Virus record (IMG/VR): IMGVR_UViG_3300029305_006521
Location: 1 to 64,000 of that record
DNA length: 64,000 bases
From: a virus
Lineage: Duplodnaviria > Caudoviricetes
Direction: 5' to 3' (one strand)
Part shown: piece after piece, positions 31,801 through 57,226 of the stretch
Numbering within the stretch: position 1 is the first letter of the stretch
Layout of the letters: each line of letters begins with the position of its first letter
Notes under the pieces: model-generated
Seen by the model: the letters and a program-made list of their open reading frames with translations, nothing else
Told to the model about the DNA's origin: nothing
Database searches by the model: none
Program-made: the position numbers and the translations under genes

Positions 31801-34028
31801 TCAATTATTTTATTTATAGTAGTAATTAATTTTGTTAATAAATCTACCGCGCTCTTGATAAAATCAGAATTAGCCAACCCCATTGAAAACGCATCCCATG
31901 CGTTTTTAAGATTATTTAATTTACTTTCTAAACTTTCAGTTGTTTTTTCAAATTGAGCTTGACTCGCGCCGGCGCTATTATTTGCAGCACCAACTAATTC
32001 CATTGTACGGTCATAGTTGCTCATCATAGCAATAAAACGAGACTGTTGACGAGAACCTGCTGCCATAGTGGCAATATAGCGCTGAGTATTAGTATCTAAT
32101 CCATCCCATTTCTGAGCGATTTCAATGAAAACATCATCTAAATCGCGGAACTGACCGCTTGTATCACGAAGGGAAACATTGATGGTTCTTAACGCTGTTT
32201 CAATTTTGTTAGCATCAACAATTTCACCATCAACTTCACCAATTTCTGCTGGGTCTTTCTTTAATTCCTGGAAACGAGCAACAACAGTTTTCATTGCTGT
32301 ACCAGCAGTTTCAGCAGATTCACGAGTGGTTTCAATAATCTGTGACAAGAAAGCCGCAGTAGTTTCAAATTCCATATTTGCGCTATCTGCAATAGAAGCA
32401 GTCTTCGTCATAGCAGTAGCAATTTCTTCAGTATCTGCTGCAGTAATAGCCGCTAATTCAGAATAAACATCATTTACACGCTTAGCGCTAGTTTCATTTA
32501 ACTCCATATTAAAACCACGAAGGGCAGCAGTCATTTTGTCTGTTGCATCAGCATAATCCATGCCAGCAATTCGTGCCATCTTCATGGTTTCAGTGCCTAT
32601 TTCAAAAACTTCATTGGTTTCAAGACCCTGTTGATAGAACAAAGTCATAGTTTCATAGGCACCAAGTGTTGTAGTTCCTAATTTATTAGCAGCTTCAGTA
32701 TATTGAGGTAACTGGTCCCACATATCACTAACTGAAAAGTCAGTAACTACTGCGGTTTCAGTCATCGCTTTATCAAGTTCTTTTACCGTTTCAAAAGCGC
32801 TTCTAACAGTACGCTTAAATATTTCAACAGCGTTACCAATTGAGAAGAAATGAAGTAGGTTATTTCGTAAGTTCTCAATATCCTTCTGCTTATCCGTCAT
32901 TTCTTTTAAACCATCGCCAGCTTCATGACTTGCGCGGCCAAGACCTCTAACTGGTTCTTCAGCACTATCGGCAGTTGCGCGAACTTGTTTTAAAGCTTCA
33001 GCTGCACGTGCGGCAGAATCGGTACCTAATTGTTCAAGAACTCTCTCAAATTCTTCCATTGAATTTATGGAAGAAACATCTATTCCAATTTCATCCCAAT
33101 TAATACCAGTTAATTGGGTTAAAGAATTTTTTAAATTATCAAAAGCTTCGGTTTTTACAGATTTGCCTTGAGTTTCATTAAAGGTTTTTAATGCCTGTTC
33201 TGCTTTTACTACATTTTGTTCTAAAGCTTCATATTCTTTATCTAAATCTGATTGAAGAACAAATTGTTCGGTTTTGGCTAGTTGTTCATTATAAGCTTTT
33301 TGCGCAGCATCAAGGTCTTTGGTTGTTTTAACCAACTCTTTACCTTCTTTGGTTTGATTAAAACCCTTACTACCAAAGTTTTCATATTTTACATTGCCGT
33401 TTTTATCAGTCTCTTTTTTAGCAATTCTTTCATTTGCTGCAGATAATGCTTCATCTCTTAATTTGGCCGCTTCTTTAAGATTTTTCTTTAAAATTTCAAG
33501 GTTATTTATTTCATTTTGATATTGGTTTTTAGCATTTATATCACTATCTTTAATAACTATTTTTTTAGCAGATTTAGAACCTTGTTCTAAAGCTTTTTTT
33601 GCCTTTTCAAGATTTCTATTTAATTTATTTTGTTCAGTATTAGTACTCTTAACACTTTCATTATAAATTCTTTGTAACTTTGCCATTTCTGTCAAAGCTT
33701 TTTGGTCTTCTTTTAAAAGAGAGGTTTTAACACCATGTTTTTCTAATTTATTAATTAAATCATCATAAATATTTTCTATATTAGAAACTGTTTTTTGAAA
33801 TACTTTTTCATCAACTAGTTTTAATTTACCACCAGCAGTTAATTCACTAGCTTTTTCAATTTCTTTAAAAGCCTTTTTAAAACTTGTTGTAAAACTTTCT
33901 GACAATTGAGGTCCTAAATTTAGATTCCCCAACTGGCTTTCCATGATTTTTAGTGCTTTGGAAAAATTATCTAGCTTTCCAATAACATCAACATTAACCG
34001 CAATGGTACTTGTCTGCTTATTTGCCAT
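25869..34028 (-). CDS. Tail tape measure protein with C-terminal peptidoglycan-binding domain
   Basis: ~2720 aa helical; TP901-type TMP core (ELDKAMTE...SAETAGTAMKT...AAGSRQ); C-terminal LQNAL...IDGIYGSKT...VDGYYG PG-binding repeat; start moved to ATG 34028 after GGAGG. Confidence 0.9.
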   Translation of the reverse strand: MANKQTSTIAVNVDVIGKLDNFSKALKIMESQLGNLNLGPQLSESFTTSFKKAFKEIEKASELTAGGKLKLVDEKVFQKTVSNIENIYDDLINKLEKHGVKTSLLKEDQKALTEMAKLQRIYNESVKSTNTEQNKLNRNLEKAKKALEQGSKSAKKIVIKDSDINAKNQYQNEINNLEILKKNLKEAAKLRDEALSAANERIAKKETDKNGNVKYENFGSKGFNQTKEGKELVKTTKDLDAAQKAYNEQLAKTEQFVLQSDLDKEYEALEQNVVKAEQALKTFNETQGKSVKTEAFDNLKNSLTQLTGINWDEIGIDVSSINSMEEFERVLEQLGTDSAARAAEALKQVRATADSAEEPVRGLGRASHEAGDGLKEMTDKQKDIENLRNNLLHFFSIGNAVEIFKRTVRSAFETVKELDKAMTETAVVTDFSVSDMWDQLPQYTEAANKLGTTTLGAYETMTLFYQQGLETNEVFEIGTETMKMARIAGMDYADATDKMTAALRGFNMELNETSAKRVNDVYSELAAITAADTEEIATAMTKTASIADSANMEFETTAAFLSQIIETTRESAETAGTAMKTVVARFQELKKDPAEIGEVDGEIVDANKIETALRTINVSLRDTSGQFRDLDDVFIEIAQKWDGLDTNTQRYIATMAAGSRQQSRFIAMMSNYDRTMELVGAANNSAGASQAQFEKTTESLESKLNNLKNAWDAFSMGLANSDFIKSAVDLLTKLITTINKIIDSVSGKNGLIKSILSIGLTFGGLKIGKNVFNKILGGVSEAFGGAGAKASKSFADNLNSGLTKVKKIFKKDFWVGIHPPKDAFDGVKDAFNGLREAADDQIKLTAASQQLNNALRAVGISEKQQQAIQALGLTLDNQEIALTNKAIAQKLLQHKVDMIANGLSKEEIKNRLNEIATTYGQMAAEASLNQVQGVGVLTKLSNIAALLFGNAEKRKGAVATLGLAASEGVATGATNALTAAFLACPLGWIFAAIAAVAAGALLLANAIETDAEKQERLNENMKQAAEAAENAKAAYDELLGDKSEYDDLQNTLDELVEGTDAWREKLAEVNQQVLELITKYPTLAKYLETGEHGQMVISDNGWNEVINQQQRIVRATALGNLSAQLQNSSFQKELINKEFDSKFENNDLVVERDVQRAFLENIDNADFWKDVEGSLKTMGIETQLTSKQLKTAQEALVGYTEELKTNQAEMSGFIKGVYHTTVSEENKQDKNFDAAAEVFSKNFSQQDGISQDVLDEYTLKWGFGTRAQGDLTWFDDLSKNKEFLEVAKKYGVDTAKFNGVERHDAAVVYAAIAGLESAEDVDKGLNTRDILEKIASIEAAETIGIEFNDFMTAEKGTSRFDDFLQVWQQDASTSIEEIGNVFNEVISDDEIAQKYADALGIDVGELKSTFAKNYAAIIKQQAKNQAKLQKYFESSGGKIRESLINQFPSLSQEDVQKLSSLYDNINQYLGQTGVDILSAQLSLNLNTESIAEAESLINSISWSDPIAAISQLSNQVKYGTGNVKALAQQFLDLNADIFSTSAQFKSWLNSDDFQEVQEELNGILEANDELSADNIRELAEESQTLNKFLKQNKISVSGLAKTLTKLTTGELNITHMTDAVLASLGAFDSLDEVIKDTIQSIEDYEAGLDGRDVSNWFKDQAENMKELMDEGRWGNAQLANAAKFFYGADFLEDENGEKLSDDAYKARLKEAQSMFDENSSNMEQFWIDNLEKLQQAGLDISNKNGELIFNNLENYTGDELRKLISEALDITEQGAGMMITDAKDYSPNMAQFMEKEDYNKGLKLASEALDEVNGKTIITSKTVEGLASVWGKSKEEILADLKELNKEQQIFEFDVDFKLKDPNKTLGSALADAGITIEDFTIGRNTSGRVLSYQALVEVSEVTGFSPEEILAEYGTNKDGIYSIKVPVYGEMQTIEIKDPKDLKPEIDKKHIEEEARIAAEIEKQVWEESPIQVYLDDSEAKATLEELLKTETKTIEIVYDSKDGTIPLVSTTLNTDTTSNLTPNQRKTLAGRSRGLSRVSGNAKVSGTLVGELGPEMVVDPATNTWTTVGNNGAEFVNLPNNPIVFNHLQTEELLKHGSINSRASGALVSGNAAVSAYGDTTPGKTSSKDSKNENVWENVFDKLYNLSEAINRNLREREKLERTYNKLLREQVQILNTTDYARNISAQIQNLKEQADILRRDYALQSSMYRGKGEQLQSYMAKNSSLRKYAYYDSGSQQIFINWDAIDKVKDEEKDQKIEDYVSKLEELRDAMWDAEDAMFDAEEQIEEMKEDLREKLEELKQAYLDFEDRVVEALVAQRQAEIDELQETYDLISESNSSILSAIQDVISEQRALRELEEQKADIEEMQRRLAMLRQDTSGASDLEIRALEEQIGDAQQSYTDALIDQAIDEMGNANEKAEEQRQQQIDLLQHQLDWDKENGKFWGQVNELLHSAINPDGSLNNNSPLVELLKSTEGYKALSDFGKQNWWTNLQKTVAEAMAGLKEWMNPTDVDAAIGGAQGGNGNYGSGDFGSGGGYFAQLAPAAKKPTKSMSSDEIKTLQNALASIGLYSGAIDGIYGSKTEKAVKDLQKILGVKVDGYYGQDTHAAVMASEYRKYATGGLADFTGPAWLDGTKTHPEIVLNARDTANFLELRDILRDMNLVSDGKTSGGDNYFEIHIEVDTLSNDYDVEQVADKVKRIINDDARYRNTNAINLIR

Positions 34029-48096: not shown

Positions 48097-48125
48097 AGTA
48101 TAACACAATTTTGGGGAGTTGTCAA
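48097..48125 (-). promoter_or_regulatory. Sigma-A promoter for the leftward (morphogenesis) strand
   Basis: TTGACA-17 bp-TATACT with TG. Confidence 0.8.
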
Positions 48126-48255
48126 ATTTTCAAATTAGTTTCGTGGGACGAGTTTTCCAGGTAGGGGTATTTGATTGTTAAAAAATTCACAATTTCCCAC
48201 AAACCACCCGCCCCTTTGTTAAAAAAATAACTAATAAAAAAAATAATAAAAAGTG

Positions 48256-48284
48256 TTGACATATTTAGATGTATGCTGTATACT
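48256..48284 (+). promoter_or_regulatory. Sigma-A promoter of the first rightward unit; a palindrome half-site lies in its spacer
   Basis: TTGACA-17-TATACT, A-tract UP element upstream, TTTAGATGT at 48264-48272. Confidence 0.85.
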
Positions 48285-48332: not shown

Positions 48333-48851
48333 ATGAGCAAAATCTATGTATTCAAGGCAACCGACAAGGGTATCATTGGCAAAGCCTTTGAAATGGCTAT
48401 CAAAGACAGCCTGAACCGCAAAAATGCTGACAGGGTCAGCCCCTGCGGAACTTGCGATTTCCGCTATAATCGCAAAGCCTATGATACTAAACAGAACGGC
48501 TCTGTTCTCAAGTATGACGGCGTAGACGGCTATGTTCGCGGCTCTTCCCGTGTTATCTATGCAACCCATGTTGCCCACACCATGAGCGTGCAGGGTGAGC
48601 AGGCTTTCATCTCTATCGACCTGATGAACACTGAAATGTTCGTCCTTGACAAAAAGGACTTTGTGGAAGAGCTTGAGCGCATGAACGCTATGAAGTACAA
48701 TGCCGCAAGGCATGAAATCAATATCCAGACCATGTACAACTACAAAAAGGACGCCTACCACGGCAAGAAAGGCAAGGACCTTGAACAGTGGGCATGGGAG
48801 AACTGCCTTGAGGATGATATCCTTGACGCAATCATTGAGGGGCTTGAATAA
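48333..48851 (+). CDS. PD-(D/E)XK restriction-endonuclease-like nuclease (putative)
   Basis: GKAFE helix...CD...YDTK arrangement; start ATG 48333 after AAGGA. Confidence 0.5.
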   Translation: MSKIYVFKATDKGIIGKAFEMAIKDSLNRKNADRVSPCGTCDFRYNRKAYDTKQNGSVLKYDGVDGYVRGSSRVIYATHVAHTMSVQGEQAFISIDLMNTEMFVLDKKDFVEELERMNAMKYNAARHEINIQTMYNYKKDAYHGKKGKDLEQWAWENCLEDDILDAIIEGLE

Positions 48852-48859
48852 AGCCCCTT

Positions 48860-48907
48860 TGGGTCAGCCGGTAAGAGTCCGGCTCTGATGAGCAAGAGCG
48901 AAACCCA
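48860..48907 (+). ncRNA. Type III hammerhead ribozyme
   Basis: UGGGUC|AGCCGG-loop-CCGGCU-CUGAUGA-GC-AAGA-GC-GAAACCCA: intact core, GUC cleavage triplet, stems I, II and III all pair. Confidence 0.85.
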
Positions 48908-48929
48908 TAAAAGAAAGGAAGCTAAGAAA

Positions 48930-49238
48930 ATGAAAGAAGCCTATACTGATATCTGCAAGATGATTGTCAAGATGATGGAGAAAGAAGCTAAGTATGAAGC
49001 TGAATATGATGCCGCATATGAAGCCTTTTTCGACCAGAACCACGCTGTCACCTACTGGGAAGAACGGTATAAAGAAGAAGGGGAAGCCGTAGGTAGTGAA
49101 CTGGATGCCGCCTATGATGCTAACCATGAAGCTTGGCAAAAGCAGAGTGATGCTGGTGATAAACTTGATGTAGTCCGTGATATTCTAAGGCACCTTAGAG
49201 AAGCCGCCGAACTGATTGAAGATAATGAGGGGATATAA
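48930..49238 (+). CDS. Acidic helical hypothetical protein
   Basis: ATG 48930 after GAAAGGA, immediately downstream of the ribozyme. Confidence 0.8.
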   Translation: MKEAYTDICKMIVKMMEKEAKYEAEYDAAYEAFFDQNHAVTYWEERYKEEGEAVGSELDAAYDANHEAWQKQSDAGDKLDVVRDILRHLREAAELIEDNEGI

Positions 49239-49277
49239 ATCCCCTTTTTATTTATTGTTTAGTTTCTCAATAGGAAA

Positions 49278-49335
49278 CTTAGATGTAGCACATCTAAATC
49301 CCAATGTTGACAAATGGGAAACTATGTAGTACAAT
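49278..49335 (+). promoter_or_regulatory. Palindrome plus sigma-A promoter (gap 8)
   Basis: TTGACA 49307, 17-bp spacer, TACAAT 49330. Confidence 0.85.
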
Positions 49336-49367
49336 GTATATACAGTAAAGGAAAGGGGAACACGAAC

Positions 49368-49826
49368 ATGAGTAACTATACTATCTACTTTGACATGGAC
49401 GGTACCATTGCAAACCTGTATGGGGTTGACAACTGGCTTGACAAGCTGAGGGCTGAGGATGCAAGCCCATATGTAGAAGCTGAGCCTATGGTCGATATGT
49501 GTGAACTGAGTCGCCTCCTGTGTAAAGCTGTTGAGATGGGCTACAGGCTGGGTATTATCAGTTGGCTGAGCCGAGAGGCATCGCAGGAGTATAAGAAAGA
49601 AATCCGAGCTGCAAAGCGTGCATGGTTGGAAGAAAATCTCGATGTAGATTTTGATGAAATTCATCTTGTGCAGTATGGCACAAGAAAAGATTATGTGGCA
49701 CAGGATAAACAGGGAATTATCTTTGATGATGATGAAAGAGTGAGAAATAATTGGAAAGGTTTTGCAATCAATCCAGAGGAAACAAATATGATTGATTTTC
49801 TGAAATTTATTGTAATGGACGAGTAA
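49368..49826 (+). CDS. HAD-superfamily 5'(3')-nucleotidase-like hydrolase
   Basis: FDMDGTIA motif I, IIS motif II, K and IFDD motifs. Confidence 0.8.
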   Translation: MSNYTIYFDMDGTIANLYGVDNWLDKLRAEDASPYVEAEPMVDMCELSRLLCKAVEMGYRLGIISWLSREASQEYKKEIRAAKRAWLEENLDVDFDEIHLVQYGTRKDYVAQDKQGIIFDDDERVRNNWKGFAINPEETNMIDFLKFIVMDE

Positions 49827-49851
49827 TCGTCCATTTTTTTTGAGAAAAAGA

Positions 49852-49909
49852 TTTAGATGTGGAACATCTAAATTGGGGTATTGACAAAATTGTCCCGAAA
49901 TGGTATACT
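49852..49909 (+). promoter_or_regulatory. Palindrome plus sigma-A promoter (gap 8)
   Basis: TTGACA 49881-17-TATACT 49904. Confidence 0.85.
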
Positions 49910-49942
49910 TTAAGTACAGTAAAGGAAAGGAAAAATAAAAAA

Positions 49943-50221
49943 ATGAAAAAAGCATTTGAAATGAACAAAATCGCATCTGAGGCAGTTATGGAAAAAATCG
50001 AAAAAATGGAAAAAAATGCCGTAGAAACCGTAGAAAAGAAAATTTTCCCTCAGATTGAAGCCGAAGCAAAAAAAGGTTTCTACAATGTAAAATTTCATGT
50101 AGATAGCAATATTGAAAAAAATATTGTTGTAAAAATTTTGGAAGAAAATGGTTATGTAGTAAAAGCAAATGGATACCATCTTTCTATTGATTGGTATATG
50201 GCAAGAGAAATTGGGGAATAA
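49943..50221 (+). CDS. Hypothetical protein (paralogue of 55291-55566)
   Basis: AKKG...L.E.GY.V....I.W pattern; SD AAGGAAAGG. Confidence 0.75.
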   Translation: MKKAFEMNKIASEAVMEKIEKMEKNAVETVEKKIFPQIEAEAKKGFYNVKFHVDSNIEKNIVVKILEENGYVVKANGYHLSIDWYMAREIGE

Positions 50222-50238
50222 TTTTCCCTTTTTCTAAA

Positions 50239-50306
50239 TTTAGATGTACCACATCTAAAAACAAAATAATTTTCCTATTGCTTTTTTCAGAAATATCTGT
50301 TATAAT
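50239..50306 (+). promoter_or_regulatory. Palindrome plus sigma-A promoter (gap 18)
   Basis: TTGCTT 50278-17-TATAAT 50301. Confidence 0.8.
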
Positions 50307-50373
50307 TTAATTACAGTAAAGGACAGGGAAAAACAAAATCCCGAAATTAAAAGAAAGAAAAGGAGAAAAGAAA

Positions 50374-50766
50374 ATGCGAGTAACTAAGACTGTCAGGGAG
50401 TATATCGAAAAGAAGGTAGCCGAAAAGGTATATGTAAAGTATGAAGCTGAGAAGCTGGAAGCAAAGCTGCAGAATGAAGAAATTCATAATTTTGTCGAAG
50501 AACTTGAAGATACAATGAATGAATATGTTGACAAACATATCAAGATGTTTGTTGAAGAACATCCTTATGCCGAAAGAAGCGCACGAGAAAGACTGGTTTC
50601 TTTTTACAGTCCTATTAACATTATTGACCGTCATATGAATTCTTCTGTTCATAACTGGCAGAGTCGTGCCCGCGCAGAAATCAAGGAAAAAGTTGATGAT
50701 ATCATCGTCACTCTTGAACTTGGTGGTACTAAGGCAGATTTGGAGCGGATGATTTCTGAAATTTAA
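50374..50766 (+). CDS. Hypothetical protein
   Basis: 130-aa ORF, SD AAGGAG. Confidence 0.8.
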   Translation: MRVTKTVREYIEKKVAEKVYVKYEAEKLEAKLQNEEIHNFVEELEDTMNEYVDKHIKMFVEEHPYAERSARERLVSFYSPINIIDRHMNSSVHNWQSRARAEIKEKVDDIIVTLELGGTKADLERMISEI

Positions 50767-50843
50767 TTTCTGCAAAATGGTTGATATAGATGTTCCTTTC
50801 TTTGGAGAGAGTCGGGAGAAATCCCGATTTTCTTCTAAAATAA

Positions 50844-50911
50844 TTTAGATGTACTACATCTAAATTTGACATTCTTTTTTATTTGACAAAATTTCTAATT
50901 TGTGTTATACT
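50844..50911 (+). promoter_or_regulatory. Palindrome plus sigma-A promoter (gap 18)
   Basis: TTGACA 50883-17-TATACT 50906. Confidence 0.85.
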
Positions 50912-50943
50912 AATTACAGAAAAAAGGAAAGGAAATCCCGAAA

Positions 50944-51111
50944 ATGATTAACGAAATTAAAATACTATTTGCAGATGATTATATTAAAGTTGGCCGCAAG
51001 GTAATACGACCTTTCTCCTTCGCTTGGTGGTGTATTCAGCTAAGCAAGGTTTTGATTGGTGTCCTTTCTTTTTATTTCCTTTACTGTTCCTTGTGGATGC
51101 TGGCGGCATAA
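50944..51111 (+). CDS. 55-aa membrane protein (absent from ORF track)
   Basis: MINEIKILFADD...VLIGVLSFYFLYCSLWMLAA; own promoter, SD and a hairpin over the stop codon. Confidence 0.75.
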   Translation: MINEIKILFADDYIKVGRKVIRPFSFAWWCIQLSKVLIGVLSFYFLYCSLWMLAA

Positions 51112-51127
51112 GCTGCCAGCTCCAATA

Positions 51128-51185
51128 TTTAGATGTTCTACATCTAAATTCCTTTGTTGACAAAATAAGATTACTATGGTACAAT
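51128..51185 (+). promoter_or_regulatory. Palindrome plus sigma-A promoter (gap 8)
   Basis: TTGACA 51157-17-TACAAT 51180. Confidence 0.85.
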
Positions 51186-51216
51186 GTATATACAGTAAAG
51201 GAAAGGAAACAAAACA

Positions 51217-51459
51217 ATGAAGATTATTGATGTTATTAATTTTTACTATACTAACCATGAAGTTATTAAAGTCAAAGTAGAGGCTAATGAAGGTATTGAA
51301 GGGAGATATCATAAGCTCACAAAGCAGGAAGCATATGATTTTCTTGATGGTTTTTACGATGAAGAAGTTGTTGTAATTATTTTCGAAACTCATACTACAT
51401 TTTGTGGAAAAATTTCTCGTGAACTTGAGATTCCTCTTTTGTATATTCTTTACAAGTAA
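51217..51459 (+). CDS. Hypothetical protein
   Basis: 80-aa ORF with SD and terminator. Confidence 0.75.
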   Translation: MKIIDVINFYYTNHEVIKVKVEANEGIEGRYHKLTKQEAYDFLDGFYDEEVVVIIFETHTTFCGKISRELEIPLLYILYK

Positions 51460-51487
51460 TAATTTAGGGGATTATTCCCCTTTTAAT

Positions 51488-51545
51488 TTTAGATGTTCTA
51501 CATCTAAATTCTTCTATTGACTTTTAATATTTATTGTGATAGAAT
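51488..51545 (+). promoter_or_regulatory. Palindrome plus sigma-A promoter (gap 8)
   Basis: TTGACT 51517-17-TAGAAT 51540. Confidence 0.8.
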
Positions 51546-51574
51546 TATATTAACAAAAGAAAGGAAATAAAAAA

Positions 51575-52039
51575 ATGATTTCATTCATTGTATTTAATGT
51601 TATCAATGTTATTATTCAAACTATTAAATCTATCGTTACTATCAAATGTAATAAGTATGTTGCCGCAGTTGTCAATGCAGTTGCTTATGGTCTTTATACT
51701 TATATTGTAGTATTGACTGCAAGTGATTTGGATTTGTGGTTTAAGATTACAGTAACTGCCGCCGCGAATCTTGTTGGTGTGTTTGTAGTCAAATGGGTAG
51801 AAGAAAAGAAGCGCAAGGATAAACTTTGGAAAGTAGAAGCAACAGTTTATGATGTTTATACTGAAAGTTTGCATAATGATTTGAAGAAAGCCGAAATTCC
51901 CCATAATTATATTACAGATATCGGAAAGTATTCTATTTTTAACATCTATTGTGAAACTCAAAAAGATAGCGCAAAAGCAAAACAAATTCTTGATTATAAT
52001 AAAGCAAAATATTTTGTTAGTGAGACTAAAATTTTGTAA
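51575..52039 (+). CDS. Membrane protein, DUF5698/DUF2179-like
   Basis: Three N-terminal TM helices (NVIIQTIKSI...K..K..AA...NLVGV) plus a soluble C-terminal domain. Confidence 0.6.
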   Translation: MISFIVFNVINVIIQTIKSIVTIKCNKYVAAVVNAVAYGLYTYIVVLTASDLDLWFKITVTAAANLVGVFVVKWVEEKKRKDKLWKVEATVYDVYTESLHNDLKKAEIPHNYITDIGKYSIFNIYCETQKDSAKAKQILDYNKAKYFVSETKIL

Positions 52040-52049
52040 GAGGTAAAAT

Positions 52050-52154
52050 ATGAAAGGAATTTTTATAGAAATAATTTTAAGAATATTATACGTATTAACT
52101 ATATTTTTGTGTTGGGGATTGGTTGTTATTGGTATTTTAACACTTTTCGTATAA
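52050..52154 (+). CDS. 34-aa single-TM peptide (absent from ORF track)
   Basis: MKGIFIEIILRILYVLTIFLCWGLVVIGILTLFV; SD GAGGT; followed by a terminator. Confidence 0.6.
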   Translation: MKGIFIEIILRILYVLTIFLCWGLVVIGILTLFV

Positions 52155-52188
52155 GGCGGGCAACCGTCTTTTTTTTTGTAGAAAATTA

Positions 52189-52246
52189 TTTAGATGTTCT
52201 ACATCTAAATTCTCCAGTTGACAAAATTAAAATAAAATGTTATACT
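52189..52246 (+). promoter_or_regulatory. Palindrome plus sigma-A promoter (gap 8)
   Basis: TTGACA 52218-17-TATACT 52241. Confidence 0.85.
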
Positions 52247-52279
52247 AAATACAACAAAAAGGAAAGGAAATTAAAAAAA

Positions 52280-52651
52280 ATGAAGGCAACTGGTATTGTA
52301 AGGCGTATTGATGATTTGGGTCGTGTGGTTATCCCTAAGGAAATTCGGAGAATGATGAATATCAAAGAAGGTGAAGCTCTGGAAATTTTTACCGAAGATA
52401 AAAAGGTAATTTTTCAGAAATATTTTACTCCCGAAGAAAATATTTCCGAAGCAAGTGCGGAATGGGTGAGGTCTCATGCAAAGGAAATCAAGTTTGTTAA
52501 TTCTGTTGAAGGTGTAACAACTTGCGGTTTTAACAGTGGTTCAATTCGTATGGCGTGCGTCAAGCATAATCCTTCCGATAAATTTGATTTGAATGTTGCA
52601 ATTTGTTACTGTGCAAAGAAAGCAGGTTATTATGTAGAGCATTTGAATTGA
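52280..52651 (+). CDS. AbrB/SpoVT-family DNA-binding protein
   Basis: MKATGIVRRIDDLGRVVIPKEIRR matches the SpoVT N-terminus as I recall it; C-terminus too short for the GAF domain. Confidence 0.88.
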   Translation: MKATGIVRRIDDLGRVVIPKEIRRMMNIKEGEALEIFTEDKKVIFQKYFTPEENISEASAEWVRSHAKEIKFVNSVEGVTTCGFNSGSIRMACVKHNPSDKFDLNVAICYCAKKAGYYVEHLN

Positions 52652-52680
52652 TAAAAGGGGATTTTCCCCTTTTTTTATTT

Positions 52681-52748
52681 TTTAGATGTTCTACATCTAA
52701 ATTTATTTTTCAAAATCCGTTGACTTTTTCCCTATTATTTGGTATACT
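52681..52748 (+). promoter_or_regulatory. Palindrome plus sigma-A promoter (gap 18)
   Basis: TTGACT 52720-17-TATACT 52743. Confidence 0.85.
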
Positions 52749-52818
52749 TAATACAACGAAAGGGGAACAAACCCCAAATAAGGGTAGCGACCTAACCGCT
52801 AAATGAAAGGAAACTAAA

Positions 52819-53190
52819 ATGGAAAACACTGCTAACAAGATGACCGCCCGCAACTTCTACAACGCAATCGCCGCCGGCACTATCAACAGTGAGCTGATGG
52901 AGTACGCCGCCGAAGCTCTCCGTAAGATGGATGAAGCCAATGAAAAGCGCAAGACGAAGATTTCTCCCTCTCAGCTCGAGAATGAGAAGCTCAAGAATGA
53001 AATCGCAGAAAAGATGGTTGGCATGGGTTATACTACTGCCGCGACCATTGCAGAAATGATGGGTATTTCTCCCAACAAGGCAAGCGCACTTTGCCGCATG
53101 ATGGCGGATGAAAAGGATGGTCGTTTCGTAGTCACGGAAGTGAAGAACGAAAAAAAGAACAAGGTTAAGGCGTACAAACTTGCAGACTAA
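52819..53190 (+). CDS. Winged-helix DNA-binding protein (paralogue of 56885-57226)
   Basis: TAATIAEMMGISPNKASALCR HTH followed by a beta-wing ending KAYKLA. Confidence 0.7.
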   Translation: MENTANKMTARNFYNAIAAGTINSELMEYAAEALRKMDEANEKRKTKISPSQLENEKLKNEIAEKMVGMGYTTAATIAEMMGISPNKASALCRMMADEKDGRFVVTEVKNEKKNKVKAYKLAD

Positions 53191-53232
53191 TAAAAGTGGG
53201 GACGGAAGTCCCCATTTTTTTTAACGAAAAAA

Positions 53233-53300
53233 TTTAGATGTTCAACATCTAAAAAATAAATAATTTGACTATTGCAATTTATTCCCCGTTGTGGTATACT
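53233..53300 (+). promoter_or_regulatory. Palindrome plus sigma-A promoter (gap 18)
   Basis: TTGCAA 53272-17-TATACT 53295. Confidence 0.8.
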
Positions 53301-53332
53301 TTAAGTACAGTAAAGGAAAGGAATACCAAACC

Positions 53333-53995
53333 ATGATTGATAAGCGTAAGACCTATTATCTCACCATTGACACCGAAACCGCAAATAATCTTGACAATCC
53401 TTTTGTCTTTGATATTGGCGGAGCTGTGCATGATAAGCATGGAAATGTGGAAGAAACTTTTTCTTTCATTGTCCGTGAAGTTTTTATCGAAATGCCCGAC
53501 CTGATGAAAGAATGTTTTTATCAGTCTAAGCTACCTGCATATCGTGAACAAATCCGGCAGGGCGAACGCATTGTAAAAAATTATTATGAAATCCGCAAGC
53601 ACATCAACAACTTGTGTGAAAAGTATAATATCAAGGCAATTATTGCCCATAATATGCGCTTTGATTATCGTTCCACCACTACCACTCAGCGCTATATTAC
53701 TTACTCAAAGTATCGTTATTTTTTCCCTTGTGATGTTGAATTGTGGGATACTTTGAAAATGGCGCAAGATACAATTTGCAAGCAAAAAACTTATATCCGT
53801 TTTTGTGAAGAAAATGGATATACCAAAAAGAACGGAAGTCCCAGGGCAACCGCCGAAATTCTTTACCGTTATATCAGCGGAAATAATGATTTTGTTGAAA
53901 GTCATACAGGTTTGGAAGATGTTTTGATAGAGAAAGAAATTTTTGCCAAGTGTATGGCACAACATAAAAAAATGAGAAAAAACGTTTGGGAGTAA
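53333..53995 (+). CDS. DEDDh 3'-5' exonuclease
   Basis: IDTET (ExoI), AHNMRFD (ExoII), HTGLED (ExoIII). Confidence 0.85.
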   Translation: MIDKRKTYYLTIDTETANNLDNPFVFDIGGAVHDKHGNVEETFSFIVREVFIEMPDLMKECFYQSKLPAYREQIRQGERIVKNYYEIRKHINNLCEKYNIKAIIAHNMRFDYRSTTTTQRYITYSKYRYFFPCDVELWDTLKMAQDTICKQKTYIRFCEENGYTKKNGSPRATAEILYRYISGNNDFVESHTGLEDVLIEKEIFAKCMAQHKKMRKNVWE

Positions 53996-54019
53996 TCCCA
54001 AACTTTTTTTCAAAGACAA

Positions 54020-54097
54020 TTTAGATGTTCTACATCTAAAAAGTCTTTTAGAAAATTATAAAAAGGGGTTGCAATCTATCATTTATTGTGGTATACT
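54020..54097 (+). promoter_or_regulatory. Palindrome plus sigma-A promoter (gap 28)
   Basis: TTGCAA 54069-17-TATACT 54092. Confidence 0.8.
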
Positions 54098-54129
54098 TAA
54101 TACATCAAAAGGAAAGGAAAATAAACCAA

Positions 54130-54459
54130 ATGAAAAACACCACTGCTAATGTAATCCGTGAACGCTATCTGTCCGCAATCATGTCCTATTTCACCGATGA
54201 AGATATCGGGCGTATTACCTCTAACAGCTTTAACTTCCCCATTGTAGAGGGTGATGAAGAGGGCTGGGTTGAAATCGTGGTGAAAATTCCCAAAGAATCT
54301 GGGGATGAGGGCTACGACAAGAGGGAAGAATATCGCCTGAAACTTGAAGAAAAGGCACAGAAAGCGGAAGAACGGCAGAAAGCCAAGGAAAAGAAAATCG
54401 AGCGGGATAAGAAATTGAGAGAAGAAAAGAAAAAGAAAAAGGAAGAACAGAGCGAATAA
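54130..54459 (+). CDS. Hypothetical protein with highly charged K/E C-terminal helix
   Basis: ATG 54130 after AAGGAAAGG. Confidence 0.75.
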   Translation: MKNTTANVIRERYLSAIMSYFTDEDIGRITSNSFNFPIVEGDEEGWVEIVVKIPKESGDEGYDKREEYRLKLEEKAQKAEERQKAKEKKIERDKKLREEKKKKKEEQSE

Positions 54460-54501
54460 AAAAGAATGGGGAGCAATCCCCATTTTTTTTTGAAAAGACT
54501 T

Positions 54502-54558
54502 TTTAGATGTTCTACATCTAAATTTGTTGTTGACAATTGGCGGCCGACAGTGTATAAT
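54502..54558 (+). promoter_or_regulatory. Palindrome plus sigma-A promoter (gap 7)
   Basis: TTGACA 54530-17-TATAAT 54553. Confidence 0.85.
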
Positions 54559-54581
54559 AGAACTATCGAAAGGAGATAAAA

Positions 54582-54893
54582 ATGGAAAAGAAAGATTTTG
54601 TTTACTTTATACGAATAGGCGAACCCGAAGAAAATCTATATAAGATTGGAACGACCAACAATATGGATAGGCGGATGAAAGAACATCAGCGATATTATAA
54701 AAAAGAAATTACTGTTCTTTGGCAGTCGCCGCCCTATTCAAAATGGACTACATTGCGCGTAGAAGAGAACACCAAAGAAATTTGGAAAAAAACTGAAGGT
54801 TTTGAATATTTGAGGAATGACAGATTTATAATTAATCCCGAAATTAGACAGGTGAAAATTAAGGTTAGAAAAGAATGGGTGATAGACTTTTAA
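54582..54893 (+). CDS. GIY-YIG superfamily (T5orf172-like) nuclease
   Basis: FVYFI...YKIGTT.N..RR..E motif. Confidence 0.75.
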   Translation: MEKKDFVYFIRIGEPEENLYKIGTTNNMDRRMKEHQRYYKKEITVLWQSPPYSKWTTLRVEENTKEIWKKTEGFEYLRNDRFIINPEIRQVKIKVRKEWVIDF

Positions 54894-54918
54894 GGTCTAT
54901 CACTTTTTTTTGAAACAA

Positions 54919-54975
54919 TTTAGATGTTCTACATCTAAATTTATTGTTGACAAACTGCCGCCAATGATGTAAAAT
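54919..54975 (+). promoter_or_regulatory. Palindrome plus sigma-A promoter (gap 7)
   Basis: TTGACA 54947-17-TAAAAT 54970. Confidence 0.85.
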
Positions 54976-55007
54976 GGTATTAAAGAAAAGGAAAGGAAAT
55001 AAAGAAA

Positions 55008-55268
55008 ATGAATGAAATTAAAATGCTTTGGTTGATGTTCATAAGTCTGTGCCACGACACTGGACAGCACATTATTTTTGATGTGCGGATGTGGTGGGAA
55101 TCTCGATTCAACCATAAGAATTTTGGCTATTCTCACACTTTTGGCAAAAATGGTTATTTCATTAATTGCAATAATTGGTTTGTTCCTTGTGATAAGTCTT
55201 TCTCTTATGGTTGCGTAGATACAATGGTTGAATGGCGAAATGGAAACCCTTATTTTGTAAAAAGTTAA
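55008..55268 (+). CDS. Hypothetical aromatic-rich protein
   Basis: 86-aa ORF with SD. Confidence 0.7.
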   Translation: MNEIKMLWLMFISLCHDTGQHIIFDVRMWWESRFNHKNFGYSHTFGKNGYFINCNNWFVPCDKSFSYGCVDTMVEWRNGNPYFVKS

Positions 55269-55290
55269 AAAGGAAAGAGAGGTAAATAAA

Positions 55291-55566
55291 ATGTTCTATC
55301 CCTTCACCGCCCCTATGGCATGTGTCGCTTCCAAAACTTCTGTTGATGAAACCAAATTCGAGACCGAAATCCTTATTAAGGCTTATGCGGAAATTGCTCA
55401 TGTGTGGATTAATCGTGCCGCAAAAAAGGGTTGCTTCAGGACTACTATTTATGTCCCTTACGAAGCCCGCAGGCTTCTCGATGATTTGAAAGAATCTGGT
55501 TTTGAAGTCAAGCATCTTGAGAAAAATTATTATGGTGTTCATTGGGGTGATGGTGCTATTCTCTAA
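55291..55566 (+). CDS. Hypothetical protein (paralogue of 49943-50221)
   Basis: AAKKG...LKESGFEV....VHW. Confidence 0.75.
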   Translation: MFYPFTAPMACVASKTSVDETKFETEILIKAYAEIAHVWINRAAKKGCFRTTIYVPYEARRLLDDLKESGFEVKHLEKNYYGVHWGDGAIL

Positions 55567-55612
55567 ATAATGAAGTATCCCATTGGGATACTTCTTTTTT
55601 TTGAAAAAGTTT

Positions 55613-55669
55613 TTTAGATGTTCTACATCTAAAGAATCATTTGACATTTGCGGCGGTATGTGGTATTAT
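55613..55669 (+). promoter_or_regulatory. Palindrome plus sigma-A promoter (gap 7)
   Basis: TTGACA 55641-17-TATTAT 55664 with TG. Confidence 0.8.
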
Positions 55670-55698
55670 ATACTTACAGAAAGGAAGGAGATAAAAAA

Positions 55699-55860
55699 AT
55701 GAAAGAATACAGGATTTATTTCACCAAGTATTATACCTATTATGTAGAAGCAGAAACCGAAGATGAAGCAATCGAAATTGCGGAAGATGATTTTGAAGCA
55801 GATATGCGTTGTCCCATTGCAGATACAACTTATGACGAAGTAGAGGTAGAAGAAGTATGA
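55699..55860 (+). CDS. Small acidic protein (VEAE.EDEA motif)
   Basis: ATG 55699 after AAGGAG. Confidence 0.7.
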   Translation: MKEYRIYFTKYYTYYVEAETEDEAIEIAEDDFEADMRCPIADTTYDEVEVEEV

Positions 55861-55988
55861 GTTACTGTGAACAGAGCAATTGCGGTTACTACTGGAAAGA
55901 AGAGGGAGAAGACTTCCCTTGTTGCCATTTTGAAGGATGGATTGCACCATGTGAATATGAGGATGATTATGAGGAGGAAGAGGAATGA
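55857..55988 (+). CDS. 43-aa Cys-rich acidic protein (absent from ORF track)
   Basis: MSYCEQSNCGYYWKEEGEDFPCCHF...EEEEE; ATGA overlaps at both ends. Confidence 0.65.
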   Translation: MSYCEQSNCGYYWKEEGEDFPCCHFEGWIAPCEYEDDYEEEEE

Positions 55989-56173
55989 AAATTGCCGAAT
56001 GTCCTTATTGTAAAGAAGAACTTGAAATTGATGAAAGTTATGATATCGATGTTGAAGATATCGATATGGTAATAAATAGAGTAGCAGGACATTGCCCCAA
56101 TTGCAATAAAGAATTTCAATGGGAAGAAATTTATAAATACAGTCATTTTTCTAATTTGGAGGAAATTTGTTAA
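55985..56173 (+). CDS. Zn-ribbon protein
   Basis: CPYC...CPNC. Confidence 0.7.
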   Translation: MKIAECPYCKEELEIDESYDIDVEDIDMVINRVAGHCPNCNKEFQWEEIYKYSHFSNLEEIC

Positions 56174-56355
56174 TGAGATTTATACAAAGTGAAAAAATTG
56201 TTTTGTCTCAGAGTGAAAATAACACTTTCTATGATTTCTTTAATCTCATTACAGGACTTGCAAGAGGTACACGAAATCCTAATACTGAAAGAGCAATTCT
56301 AAAAATTCAGGAACTTGTTAGTGATTTGTGGGAAGGATTGGAAGTAGAAGAATAA
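56173..56355 (+). CDS. Hypothetical protein
   Basis: TAATG coupling, SD GGAGG. Confidence 0.65.
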   Translation: MRFIQSEKIVLSQSENNTFYDFFNLITGLARGTRNPNTERAILKIQELVSDLWEGLEVEE

Positions 56356-56611
56356 AAATTTGGGTCTTAACAGACCCTATTTTTTTACAAAAAAAATTTA
56401 GATGTGTCACATCTAAGTCAAATTTTTTCTTTTTCAAATTTTCTCCACCGGTGGCGTCGCGTCAAATTTTTTCTTTTGTCAAATTTTCAAATGAGCTGCA
56501 AATGAGCTGCGATGTCAAATTTCAGCTGCTAAGCTGCGAATCGCGGCGGTTGTCAAATTTTGTGTGGTTGAGCTGTGAATTGAGCTGTAAAAACTTGACA
56601 GCAGCTGCGAT

Positions 56612-56751
56612 TTGAAAAAACTGCAATTTTTTATTATAATATATATAGAAAGTGAGAGAAAAATAATAAAAAGGAGACACCCCTTTCACAGTGTTCTTTA
56701 CTCACTTTCTGCACGGGATCTTTTGCAAATGAGTTGCGGGTTCGCCCGCAA
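56612..56751 (+). ncRNA. Candidate small non-coding RNA with its own promoter
   Basis: TTGAAA-17-TATAAT; AGAAAGTGAG (56647) pairs with CTCACTTTCT (56701); ends in GCGGG-UUCG-CCCGC; no SD-linked ORF. Confidence 0.5.
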
Positions 56752-56771: not shown

Positions 56772-56800
56772 TTGAAAAACATTCAAAAATGCGCTATAAT
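56772..56800 (+). promoter_or_regulatory. Sigma-A promoter of the second wHTH gene
   Basis: TTGAAA-17-TATAAT followed by ATAGAAAGTGAGA. Confidence 0.75.
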
Positions 56801-56884: not shown

Positions 56885-57226
56885 ATGACTAACCGTGAAT
56901 TCTTCGAAGCTATCGTATCTAACACTTCCCTCTCTGCTGAAATGCATGAGCACGCCGAAAAGGAAATCGCTCGTATTGATGCCGCCAATGAGAAGGCCGC
57001 CGCGAAGCGTGCTGAAAAGGCAGCTGAAGATCAGCCCCTGCTCGATGCACTGACTGCTGCGCTGACCACTGAATTCCAGACCGCCTCCGATCTGAAGAGT
57101 GTAATTGAGTGCTCTGTACAGAAGACCTCTTCTCTGCTTCGTAAGCTTGTTAAGGCAAACGTAGCTGTTGATGGCGAAGTAAAGATTCCCAAGAAGGGTA
57201 TGCAGAAGGCTTATAAGCTGGCTTAA
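56885..57226 (+). CDS. Winged-helix DNA-binding protein (paralogue of 52819-53190)
   Basis: TASDL...SVQKTSSLLRKLV HTH, ends KAYKLA; strongly biased codons. Confidence 0.7.
   Translation: MTNREFFEAIVSNTSLSAEMHEHAEKEIARIDAANEKAAAKRAEKAAEDQPLLDALTAALTTEFQTASDLKSVIECSVQKTSSLLRKLVKANVAVDGEVKIPKKGMQKAYKLA

Follow-up and report, generated by a model that had tools for sequence, protein, structure and literature searches.

The window analysed here is a 64,000-nucleotide stretch of the IMG/VR record IMGVR_UViG_3300029305_006521 (positions 1 to 64,000), and our subject is a 21-bp palindrome that recurs upstream of a run of strong promoters within it. The source phage is uncultured and of gut/rumen type, with a genome of 144,568 bp (~145 kb), a G+C content of 33% and overlapping ends. 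Its strong sigma-70-type promoters are clustered in a 7-kb array on the + strand (49000-56000), which has a leftward structural module on one side and a non-coding zone on the other; judged by this position and by its look, the array looks like an early, host-takeover region. The units of the array run in a constant order. A small gene is followed by a GC-rich hairpin and its T-run; 2-15 nt later comes the 21-bp dyad, which a short AT-rich gap separates from a promoter of the form TTGACA-17-(TG)nTATAAT, and a purine-rich leader then precedes the next gene. A consensus scanner returned 35 terminator-like sites against 6.8 expected, with one standing before almost every palindrome.

The palindrome has the form TTTAGATGT-N3-ACATCTAAA (9+3+9 bp). 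Scanning of the 144,568-bp genome located 14 copies, all within 49278-56417 and all with perfect 7-bp core arms; no copy was found elsewhere in the genome, even with 2 mismatches allowed. Scoring of -35/-10 pairs downstream of each copy gave the following units, in which the promoters are consensus calls and the gap runs from the end of the palindrome to the -35 hexamer:

Palindrome copy 1, 49278..49298 (CTTAGATGT-AGC-ACATCTAAA); gap 8; promoter 1, 49307..49335, + strand, TTGACA-17-TACAAT
Palindrome copy 2, 49852..49872; gap 8; promoter 2, 49881..49909, + strand, TTGACA-17-TGnTATACT
Palindrome copy 3, 50239..50259; gap 18; promoter 3, 50278..50306, + strand, TTGCTT-17-TGnTATAAT (weak -35)
Palindrome copy 4, 50844..50864; gap 18; promoter 4, 50883..50911, + strand, TTGACA-17-TGnTATACT
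Palindrome copy 5, 51128..51148; gap 8; promoter 5, 51157..51185, + strand, TTGACA-17-TGnTACAAT
Palindrome copy 6, 51488..51508; gap 8; promoter 6, 51517..51545, + strand, TTGACT-17-TGnTAGAAT
Palindrome copy 7, 52189..52209; gap 8; promoter 7, 52218..52246, + strand, TTGACA-17-TGnTATACT
Palindrome copy 8, 52681..52701; gap 18; promoter 8, 52720..52748, + strand, TTGACT-17-TGnTATACT
Palindrome copy 9, 53233..53253; gap 18; promoter 9, 53272..53300, + strand, TTGCAA-17-TGnTATACT
Palindrome copy 10, 54020..54040; gap 28 (the sole gap-28 unit); promoter 10, 54069..54097, + strand, TTGCAA-17-TGnTATACT, driving the gene at 54130-54459
Palindrome copy 11, 54502..54522; gap 7; promoter 11, 54530..54558, + strand, TTGACA-17-TATAAT
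Palindrome copy 12, 54919..54939; gap 7; promoter 12, 54947..54975, + strand, TTGACA-17-TAAAAT
Palindrome copy 13, 55613..55633; gap 7; promoter 13, 55641..55669, + strand, TTGACA-17-TGnTATTAT
Palindrome copy 14, 56397..56417; after the last terminator, no promoter following; outside the range of the first-pass annotation

The series of gaps that the first-pass annotation had reported (8, 8, 18, 18, 8, 8, 8, 18, 18, 28, 7, 7 and 7 bp) was reproduced exactly, with a 17-bp spacer every time. An independent consensus scanner placed 12 of the 13 promoters at identical coordinates; promoter 3 (TTGCTT, 50278), whose -35 box matches the consensus at 3/6 positions, fell below its threshold. When the -10 hexamer is set at -12 to -7, the palindrome centres lie at -53/-54, -64 and -74 as had been claimed, and the core promoter is never overlapped, the smallest gap in the window being 7 bp. 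The gap sequences had been described as not conserved; they are mostly unrelated, but those at 50260-50277 and 53254-53271 are clearly paralogous (family D6). All 13 gaps fall in two adjacent residues modulo 10, an outcome with p ~1e-8 by arithmetic if the gaps are assumed to be independent and uniform. Independence is not guaranteed inside one genome, and the decisive support for the spacing was taken from relatives.

A scan of IMG/VR with the exact pattern, requiring a perfect match at the 16 specified bases, found 115 loci with 796 copies, which come from ~34 multi-copy contigs of 24-190 kb; degeneracy was assessed inside the fetched loci only. Addition of two purine variants and six small fragments binned with metagenome-assembled genomes (MAGs) raised the set to 910 palindromes. 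Each fully fetched relative has a single array adjoining the structural module, with 30-41 copies spread across 18-22 kb. A promoter, again a consensus call, was present on one side of 824 of the 910 palindromes. Their gaps, in counts that include both paralogues and orthologues, form a main class at 8 bp (600 sites), 7 bp (73) and 9 bp (40), with a few short gaps of 3 bp (19) and 6 bp (4) and with satellites at 16-20 bp (27), 22 bp (3), 27-32 bp (32) and 38-40 bp (9), plus a handful beyond. Gaps of 10-13, 15, 21, 23-26 and 33-37 bp were not found at all among the 824 promoter-linked palindromes, and the smallest gap was 2-3 bp. In the distal classes an UP-type A-tract usually lies between the dyad and the -35 box. 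The gaps of 3 bp (17 sites) and 6 bp (4 sites) on contig 3300001528_000197 (loci L009, L035, L056, L080 and L094) accompany the same palindrome and are half a turn off the main class.

To allow for shared descent among these sites, those with gaps of 10-50 bp were clustered at 70% identity over the gap, the promoter and 60 nt downstream. For the resulting 37 clusters the Rayleigh statistic was highest at periods of 10.5-10.9 bp (R=0.65, p ~2e-7), in phase with the main class, a value reached in 0 of 5000 uniform simulations. Harsher clustering into 14 groups still gave p=0.002. A continuous distribution of gaps in relatives, which had been set beforehand as the refutation of the spacing rule, was thus not seen: the sites fall into a main class and satellites ~10, 20 and 31 bp farther away.

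We also used the HAD-like gene at 49368-49826 as bait, which recovered 79 further loci. These related phages carry other dyads at the same place, and many have promoter-dense arrays without any dyad. For three further operator sequences the gaps were as follows:

TAGACGT-N3-ACGTCTA, 150 unique sites; gaps 6-9 bp, 97 sites; 17-20 bp, 12; 26-30 bp, 19; 36-39 bp, 6
CGTACGT-N3-ACGTACG, 34 unique sites; gaps 5-8 bp with a peak at 7 bp
ACTTGTCTA-N3-TAGACAAGT (TTGTCTA type), 44 unique sites; gaps 9 bp, 19 sites; 18 bp, 2; 29-32 bp, 11; 39-40 bp, 5

A preferred proximal offset plus whole helical turns is therefore a rule common to four operator sequences. The face-specific geometry that had been proposed for the window stands, and is much strengthened by this quantised spacing in relatives with all four operators; the offset itself differs between lineages, so that there is no universal face.

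The layout resembles the PeSL cassettes of T4-type phages, in which a terminator stem-loop and a strong early promoter flank orphan genes and mediate their shuffling (PMC2839356, PMC4122927), and PeSLs are the closest known architecture. In both cases a composite of terminator, AT-rich stretch and sigma-70-like promoter is repeated around small orphan genes in a hypervariable region, which makes the units plausible points of cassette exchange. In PeSLs no distinct invariant dyad intervenes between the terminator and the promoter, and whole-turn spacing classes are not reported; these cassettes also belong to phages of Gram-negative hosts, whereas the hosts here are probably Clostridia-type and the extra element is operator-like. 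The palindrome and promoter could on this model be nothing more than a recombination seam, kept for cassette gain, loss and shuffling, with the gap simply inherited. The PeSL-like composition (PMC2839356, PMC4122927), the occurrence of some palindromes without a promoter and the variable content of the array, where only 2 of ~20 genes in the window are widely shared among relatives, are all consistent with such a seam. Inheritance, however, would explain the main class of gaps and leave unaccounted for the satellites (+10, +20 and +31 bp), whose gaps are unrelated in sequence, as well as the recurrence of the same rule with three other palindromes. Moreover, homologous recombination does not need a dyad, and the exact conservation of 16-18 bp while the phage proteins diverge to 25-55% identity points to a sequence-specific reader. 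We consider a pure seam highly improbable. The satellites and the three other operators are hard to explain by a pure recombination joint or by simple occlusion of the core promoter, in line with the earlier preference for a transcriptional role.

The variation among palindromes bears on how the site may be read. The core varies only by A to G substitution, at arm position 4 in one lineage or position 6 in another, and the central triplet and the 8-bp gap hold almost no conserved information. The A and G arms mix freely inside a single genome, with hybrids in both orientations, and an A-left/G-right copy places an A-C mismatch in any hairpin. This free mixing indicates that the half-sites are read independently, by a protein dimer rather than through a hairpin, and the centres of the two 7-bp cores lie 10 bp from each other, on one face of the helix. 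These features fit a symmetric dimer that reads two half-sites, with pairing in RNA or in a cruciform not being the selected feature. The perfect 9-bp arms, the 3-nt loop and the location directly behind terminators might otherwise have suggested an RNA hairpin (a terminator helper or processing site) or a DNA cruciform or hairpin promoter element. Against this, hybrid copies with A-C mismatches are common within single genomes, the arm sequence is itself invariant beyond what pairing requires, and the palindrome is fixed in position to the downstream promoter while its distance from the terminator varies from 2 to 15 nt. We regard a structural role for the nucleic acid as barely credible.

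A dimeric reader could be supplied by the host or by the phage. A conserved host DNA-binding protein, for example a global regulator of Oscillospirales type, could couple early transcription to the state of the host; no canonical transcription factor is common to all of the palindrome phages, and phages with no more than 25-55% protein identity share an unchanged operator. However, 185,579 prokaryotic species genomes (596 Gb) contained only 118 matches, which by arithmetic is about chance for a 16-base pattern, and the multi-copy matches were confined to small phage-like contigs that obey the same gap rule, these being phage fragments binned with Acutalibacteraceae, Oscillospiraceae or Bacillota MAGs. 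In addition, close relatives from like samples use other palindromes or none, which resembles phage-borne specificity groups. Host matches at chance level together with lineage-specific operators make a host protein less likely, and we consider it rather improbable. The palindrome would then serve as operator for a dimeric protein with sequence-specific DNA binding, which is restricted to a phage lineage and for that reason most likely encoded by the phage.

The promoters of the array are close to consensus. In relatives they average 5.15/6 matches at -35 and 5.4/6 at -10, with a TG extension in 80% and a 17-bp spacer in 76%. The three weakest -35 boxes of the window had been linked to the 18/28-bp class. 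This is true of the window, but relatives show no such link: the mean number of -35 matches is 5.15 at proximal gaps, 5.07 at 16-20 bp, 5.50 at 27-32 bp and 5.89 at 37-41 bp, such that -35 quality goes up with palindrome distance, and TTGCAT and TTGCTT boxes are common at gaps of 7-8 bp. The pairing of weak -35 boxes with distal sites in the window is a local coincidence.

With the -10 hexamer at -12 to -7, the dyad centres over all classes lie at -53/-54, -64, -74 and -85, and a main-class site covers -64 to -44. We propose that each early unit consists of a terminator, an operator, a sigma-A-type promoter and a small gene, and that the protein would be centred at ~-54, where the C-terminal domains of the RNA polymerase alpha subunits (alpha-CTDs) and the UP element normally act. 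In a minority of units it would sit one, two or three whole helical turns farther upstream, with the same side facing RNA polymerase. From there it may touch or compete with the polymerase, most plausibly through the alpha-CTD. Because promoters so near to consensus should have no need of an activator, the net effect is taken to be negative: the early array as a whole would be damped, or shut off at a set time, which could be achieved through contact inhibition of the phi29 p4 or GalR type or through displacement of the alpha-CTD from the UP position. We put the probability that the palindrome is a face-specific operator for such a polymerase-contacting damper or shut-off factor, with a negative sign, at roughly 0.55, judging from sequence features.

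The class I sites of the cAMP receptor protein (CRP) are dyads upstream of -35 that work only at whole turns (-61.5, -72.5 and -82.5), and the late promoters of phages P2 and P4 have a site near -55 from which Ogr or Delta contacts the alpha subunit. GalR at gal OE and P2 Ogr at ~-55 both exert alpha-linked control from this region. The array shares with the CRP and Ogr systems a dyad upstream of -35 and, like CRP sites, follows a whole-turn spacing in its natural distribution (~10.5 bp, in four operator types); its offsets of -54, -64, -74 and -85 are not those of CRP. By analogy with these systems the dimer could be a class I-type activator that recruits RNA polymerase via the alpha-CTD from -54, -64, -74 or -85, the array being switched on as a delayed-early class once a palindrome-less first operon has been expressed. 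Several observations are compatible with activation: the site is always upstream at whole-turn spacing and never overlaps the core, the first rightward promoter of the region (48256) lacks a palindrome and could supply an immediate-early activator, and the three weakest -35 boxes in the window do carry one. The cores of CRP- and Ogr-dependent promoters are poor and depend on the activator, whereas those of the array are near consensus, with an extended -10 in 80%, so that the weakness expected of class I promoters is not seen. The distal-class promoters have the best -35 boxes as well as their own A-tracts just upstream of them, and the gene family of the first operon could be detected in just 10 of the 19 other palindrome phages. 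Hence the analogy with a CRP-like class I activator, which the first-pass annotation had drawn, is a poor fit, as these promoters should fire unaided, and we consider activation unlikely.

A number of points weigh against the damper proposal. The proximal offset is lineage-specific (3, 6, 7, 8 or 9 bp), a few sites are off phase (at 22, 31-32, 44-46 and 64-66 bp) and ~7% of palindromes, copy 14 included, have no promoter on either side. The negative sign is taken from promoter strength alone, and a site upstream of -35 at whole-turn spacing is the signature of an activator, not of a repressor.

Partial precedents exist among phages for a factor of this kind. According to PMC2731898 and its references 17 and 28, p4 of phage phi29 acts through the RNA polymerase alpha subunit at strong sigma-A promoters, and Spo0A represses A2b by keeping the alpha-CTD off the UP element. 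By analogy, a protein upstream of -35 would here control strong sigma-A promoters through the alpha-CTD, either by contact, which can activate or can repress a strong promoter, or by occupancy of the UP position. The phi29 system has a handful of sites at one locus, in contrast to 14-41 identical sites per genome here, and no p4 homologue was identified. SPBRE is a 15-bp element found in ~10 intergenic promoter regions of the Bacillus phage SPbeta and used for lysogeny; it was predicted in silico decades before its binder, the atypical recombinase-fold repressor MrpR (YopR), was found (PMC10516654). It is likewise a short element repeated at many promoters of a large Firmicute phage (14 copies here, 30-41 in relatives), but it belongs to a temperate phage and has no reported phased spacing; in the phage studied here no integrase or lysogeny module was seen, though no search aimed at one was made. 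The stoperators of cluster A mycobacteriophages are dozens of near-identical repressor sites whose lineage variants define specificity groups (PMC9283540, PMC6550527), and the array likewise combines many near-identical sites per genome with lineage-specific variants. Stoperators are asymmetric, bound by monomers, set in one orientation inside transcribed regions and act by stopping elongation, whereas the sites described here are dyads that follow terminators and are phased to promoters. A full-text literature search with the palindrome arms returned only primer coincidences, and no published description of this phased-operator layout was found.

If the reading as a polymerase-contacting operator is correct, evolution has run the experiment of half-turn versus full-turn insertion ~1,000 times, with several operator specificities and at strong sigma-A promoters, and uncultured Firmicute-type phages would offer a natural data set on communication between an upstream factor and RNA polymerase. 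Common control over dozens of small, fast-changing host-takeover genes would be explained. The unit of terminator, operator and consensus promoter would also be a compact, portable candidate for a switchable expression part in Gram-positive hosts, and a large family of hypothetical phage proteins would be flagged as possible regulators.

The members of that family, which we term the A4 family, are represented in the window by one gene:

54130..54459, + strand, A4-family protein of 109 aa, candidate palindrome-binding protein, behind the gap-28 promoter 10

Profile searches found A4 in 19 of 19 other palindrome phages, including those of the TAGACGT and TTGTCTA types, and did not find it in 13 palindrome-less relatives. 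The promoters of A4 genes are themselves distal in 25 of 39 unique cases, compared with 59 of 749 for other genes (odds ratio 21, p=7e-17), as would be expected of an autoregulated regulator. With its operator farther out but still in phase, the gene may experience a weaker effect of the protein. The periodicity of spacing does not depend on these promoters, since it persists without them (n=54, p ~1e-9). An AlphaFold model (mean predicted local distance difference test score, pLDDT, 81) predicts one helix and a three-stranded sheet, together with a helix of 50 residues that is rich in Lys/Glu. Homologues form >3,700 clusters, all annotated as hypothetical, and the protein matches no Pfam family. 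The A4-family protein of contig 3300001528_000197, the lineage with gaps of 3 and 6 bp, is a divergent singleton.

Several findings count against A4 as the binder. It has no recognisable DNA-binding fold, and fold searches with the whole model or with the head only found no meaningful neighbour, returning coiled-coil matches to the long helix and noise-level matches to the head (best Z 4.3). In four further A4 carriers the only dyads are a few of other types (4x TATACGT-N3, 3x CTTGTAC-N8, 4x AGTTAGT-N4 and 2x TATACGT-N4), and the association with the palindrome may for this reason be partly phylogenetic. The A4 sequence clusters do not cleanly track operator type, the copy in the window joining those of TAGACGT-type phages, and phylogeny confounds the comparison. 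On the distribution and promoter placement of its gene, we tentatively name the protein encoded at 54130-54459 as the best candidate for the palindrome binder, at odds clearly short of even. A wider proposal, which we regard as doubtful, is that the A4 proteins form a new class of dimeric DNA-binding regulators without a known fold, which would read lineage-specific dyads, contact RNA polymerase from a fixed face, autoregulate from a distal site and govern the whole array, with operator/regulator pairs diverging like immunity groups and the sites doubling as cassette seams. Were this the case, A4 would be the regulator of early arrays across a large and widespread group of gut/rumen phages.

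In relatives, the space from the main palindrome to the -35 box is in some distal-gap units occupied by an additional dyad of a second type (TGTATAC-N3-GTATACA) or a third (TTATACA-N6-TGTATAA) (L100, L011, L086, L103, L022 and L004; L013/L029/L064/L066/L081), and many of these units drive an A4-family gene. The extra dyads hint at a second layer of regulation.

Other proteins were considered as binders. The genome of the phage encodes no XRE-type helix-turn-helix (HTH) domain (HTH_3) and no Sigma70_r4, and a Pfam search of 119 open reading frames gave no domain of transcription-factor type other than AbrB/MazE among the 25 families listed. The AbrB/MazE-like gene (52280-52651) was rejected as the binder, being missing from four relatives (G001-G004) that each have 36-41 palindromes, and a weak HTH_17 match came from the tail of an HNH homing endonuclease and not from a transcription factor. 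A 77-aa zinc-knuckle protein (G000 75165-75398) occurs in just 5 of the 9 near-complete palindrome phages, which excludes it as a universal binder. A 'conserved' small open reading frame beside the arrays is an antisense artefact of a neighbouring large gene. The first palindrome-less gene of the region (48333-48851) belongs to a fast-evolving restriction-enzyme-like family (alignment A6) with a D...E-x-K / PD-(D/E)xK-like motif. A profile search for this A6 family found it in 10 of the 19 other palindrome phages and gave no match in phages without the palindrome, and the family heads the array in several relatives; these features make it a secondary candidate.

Apart from the units listed above, the array and its margins contain the following:

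48256..48284, + strand, first rightward promoter, no upstream palindrome, driving the first operon (48333-49238)
49368-49826, + strand, HAD-like gene behind promoter 1, a widely conserved array gene
52280-52651, + strand, AbrB/MazE-like gene behind promoter 7
53333-53995, + strand, DEDDh-exonuclease-like gene behind promoter 9
Stems at 49227, 49814, 50213, 51466, 52153, 52653, 53984, 54877, 55572 and 56362, + strand, intrinsic terminators, the series spanning 49227..56377
53197-53214, given on the other strand by the consensus scan, intrinsic terminator
54465-54484, given on the other strand by the consensus scan, intrinsic terminator
56362-56377, + strand, last array terminator, preceding palindrome copy 14

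A lone half-site in the 48256 promoter carries no weight, as 5 stray 8-mer half-sites occur genome-wide against ~4.4 expected. Just past the array, two TTGAAA-17-TATAAT promoters (56612-56640 and 56772-56800) share a downstream ATATATAGAAAGTGAGAGA leader (family D7); they lack an upstream palindrome and represent a different promoter class. The array is flanked on both sides by related AT-rich repeats that contain GTCAAATTTT (48119-48138 and 56417-56600), with several copies beyond the promoter-less palindrome 14 and a 95% match between 48119-48138 and 56476-56495 (family D18). These repeats may mark a boundary or an origin-proximal element.

The first ~170 bases, which belong to the end of a gene for anaerobic ribonucleotide reductase, are repeated almost exactly close to the contig end (144400-144568), with a difference of 1 base, indicating a circularly closed or permuted assembly. 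Beyond a single 134-bp match, deposited phages showed no similarity to the genome.

Two paralogous proteins of ~115-120 aa (52819-53190 and 56885-57226), found in 1-2 relatives, have a C-terminal part that is winged-helix-like by eye, with no support from Pfam or PHROG. The 77-aa zinc-knuckle-like protein mentioned above (L234:11168-11398; G000 75165-75398, minus strand) is basic, has a conserved LHQYSKNK-x-HCSCxxC motif and occurs in about half of related phages, sometimes as tandem pairs. Outside the window lie an HNH homing endonuclease with a C-terminal HTH (L234:11535-12059; G000 75535-76059, minus strand) and a further mobile nuclease, a GIY-YIG/NUMOD endonuclease (G000 87978-88601).

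Array transcripts also share 5' leaders. In the window these are common ACAGTAAAGGAAAGG leaders (family D3), and in relatives (e.g. L018, L099 and L088) many array transcripts would start with a hairpin, GTTCC-aaggg-GGAAC, or with a GAAAGTGAAGGAAAACACT...CCAGAAAGG leader. Such conserved leaders may be 5' stabilisers or translation signals. In the relative G002 (33000-33230; L266:13000-13230), a G+C-rich leader of ~200 nt, unlike its surroundings, precedes the first palindrome-less gene and may be a structured RNA.

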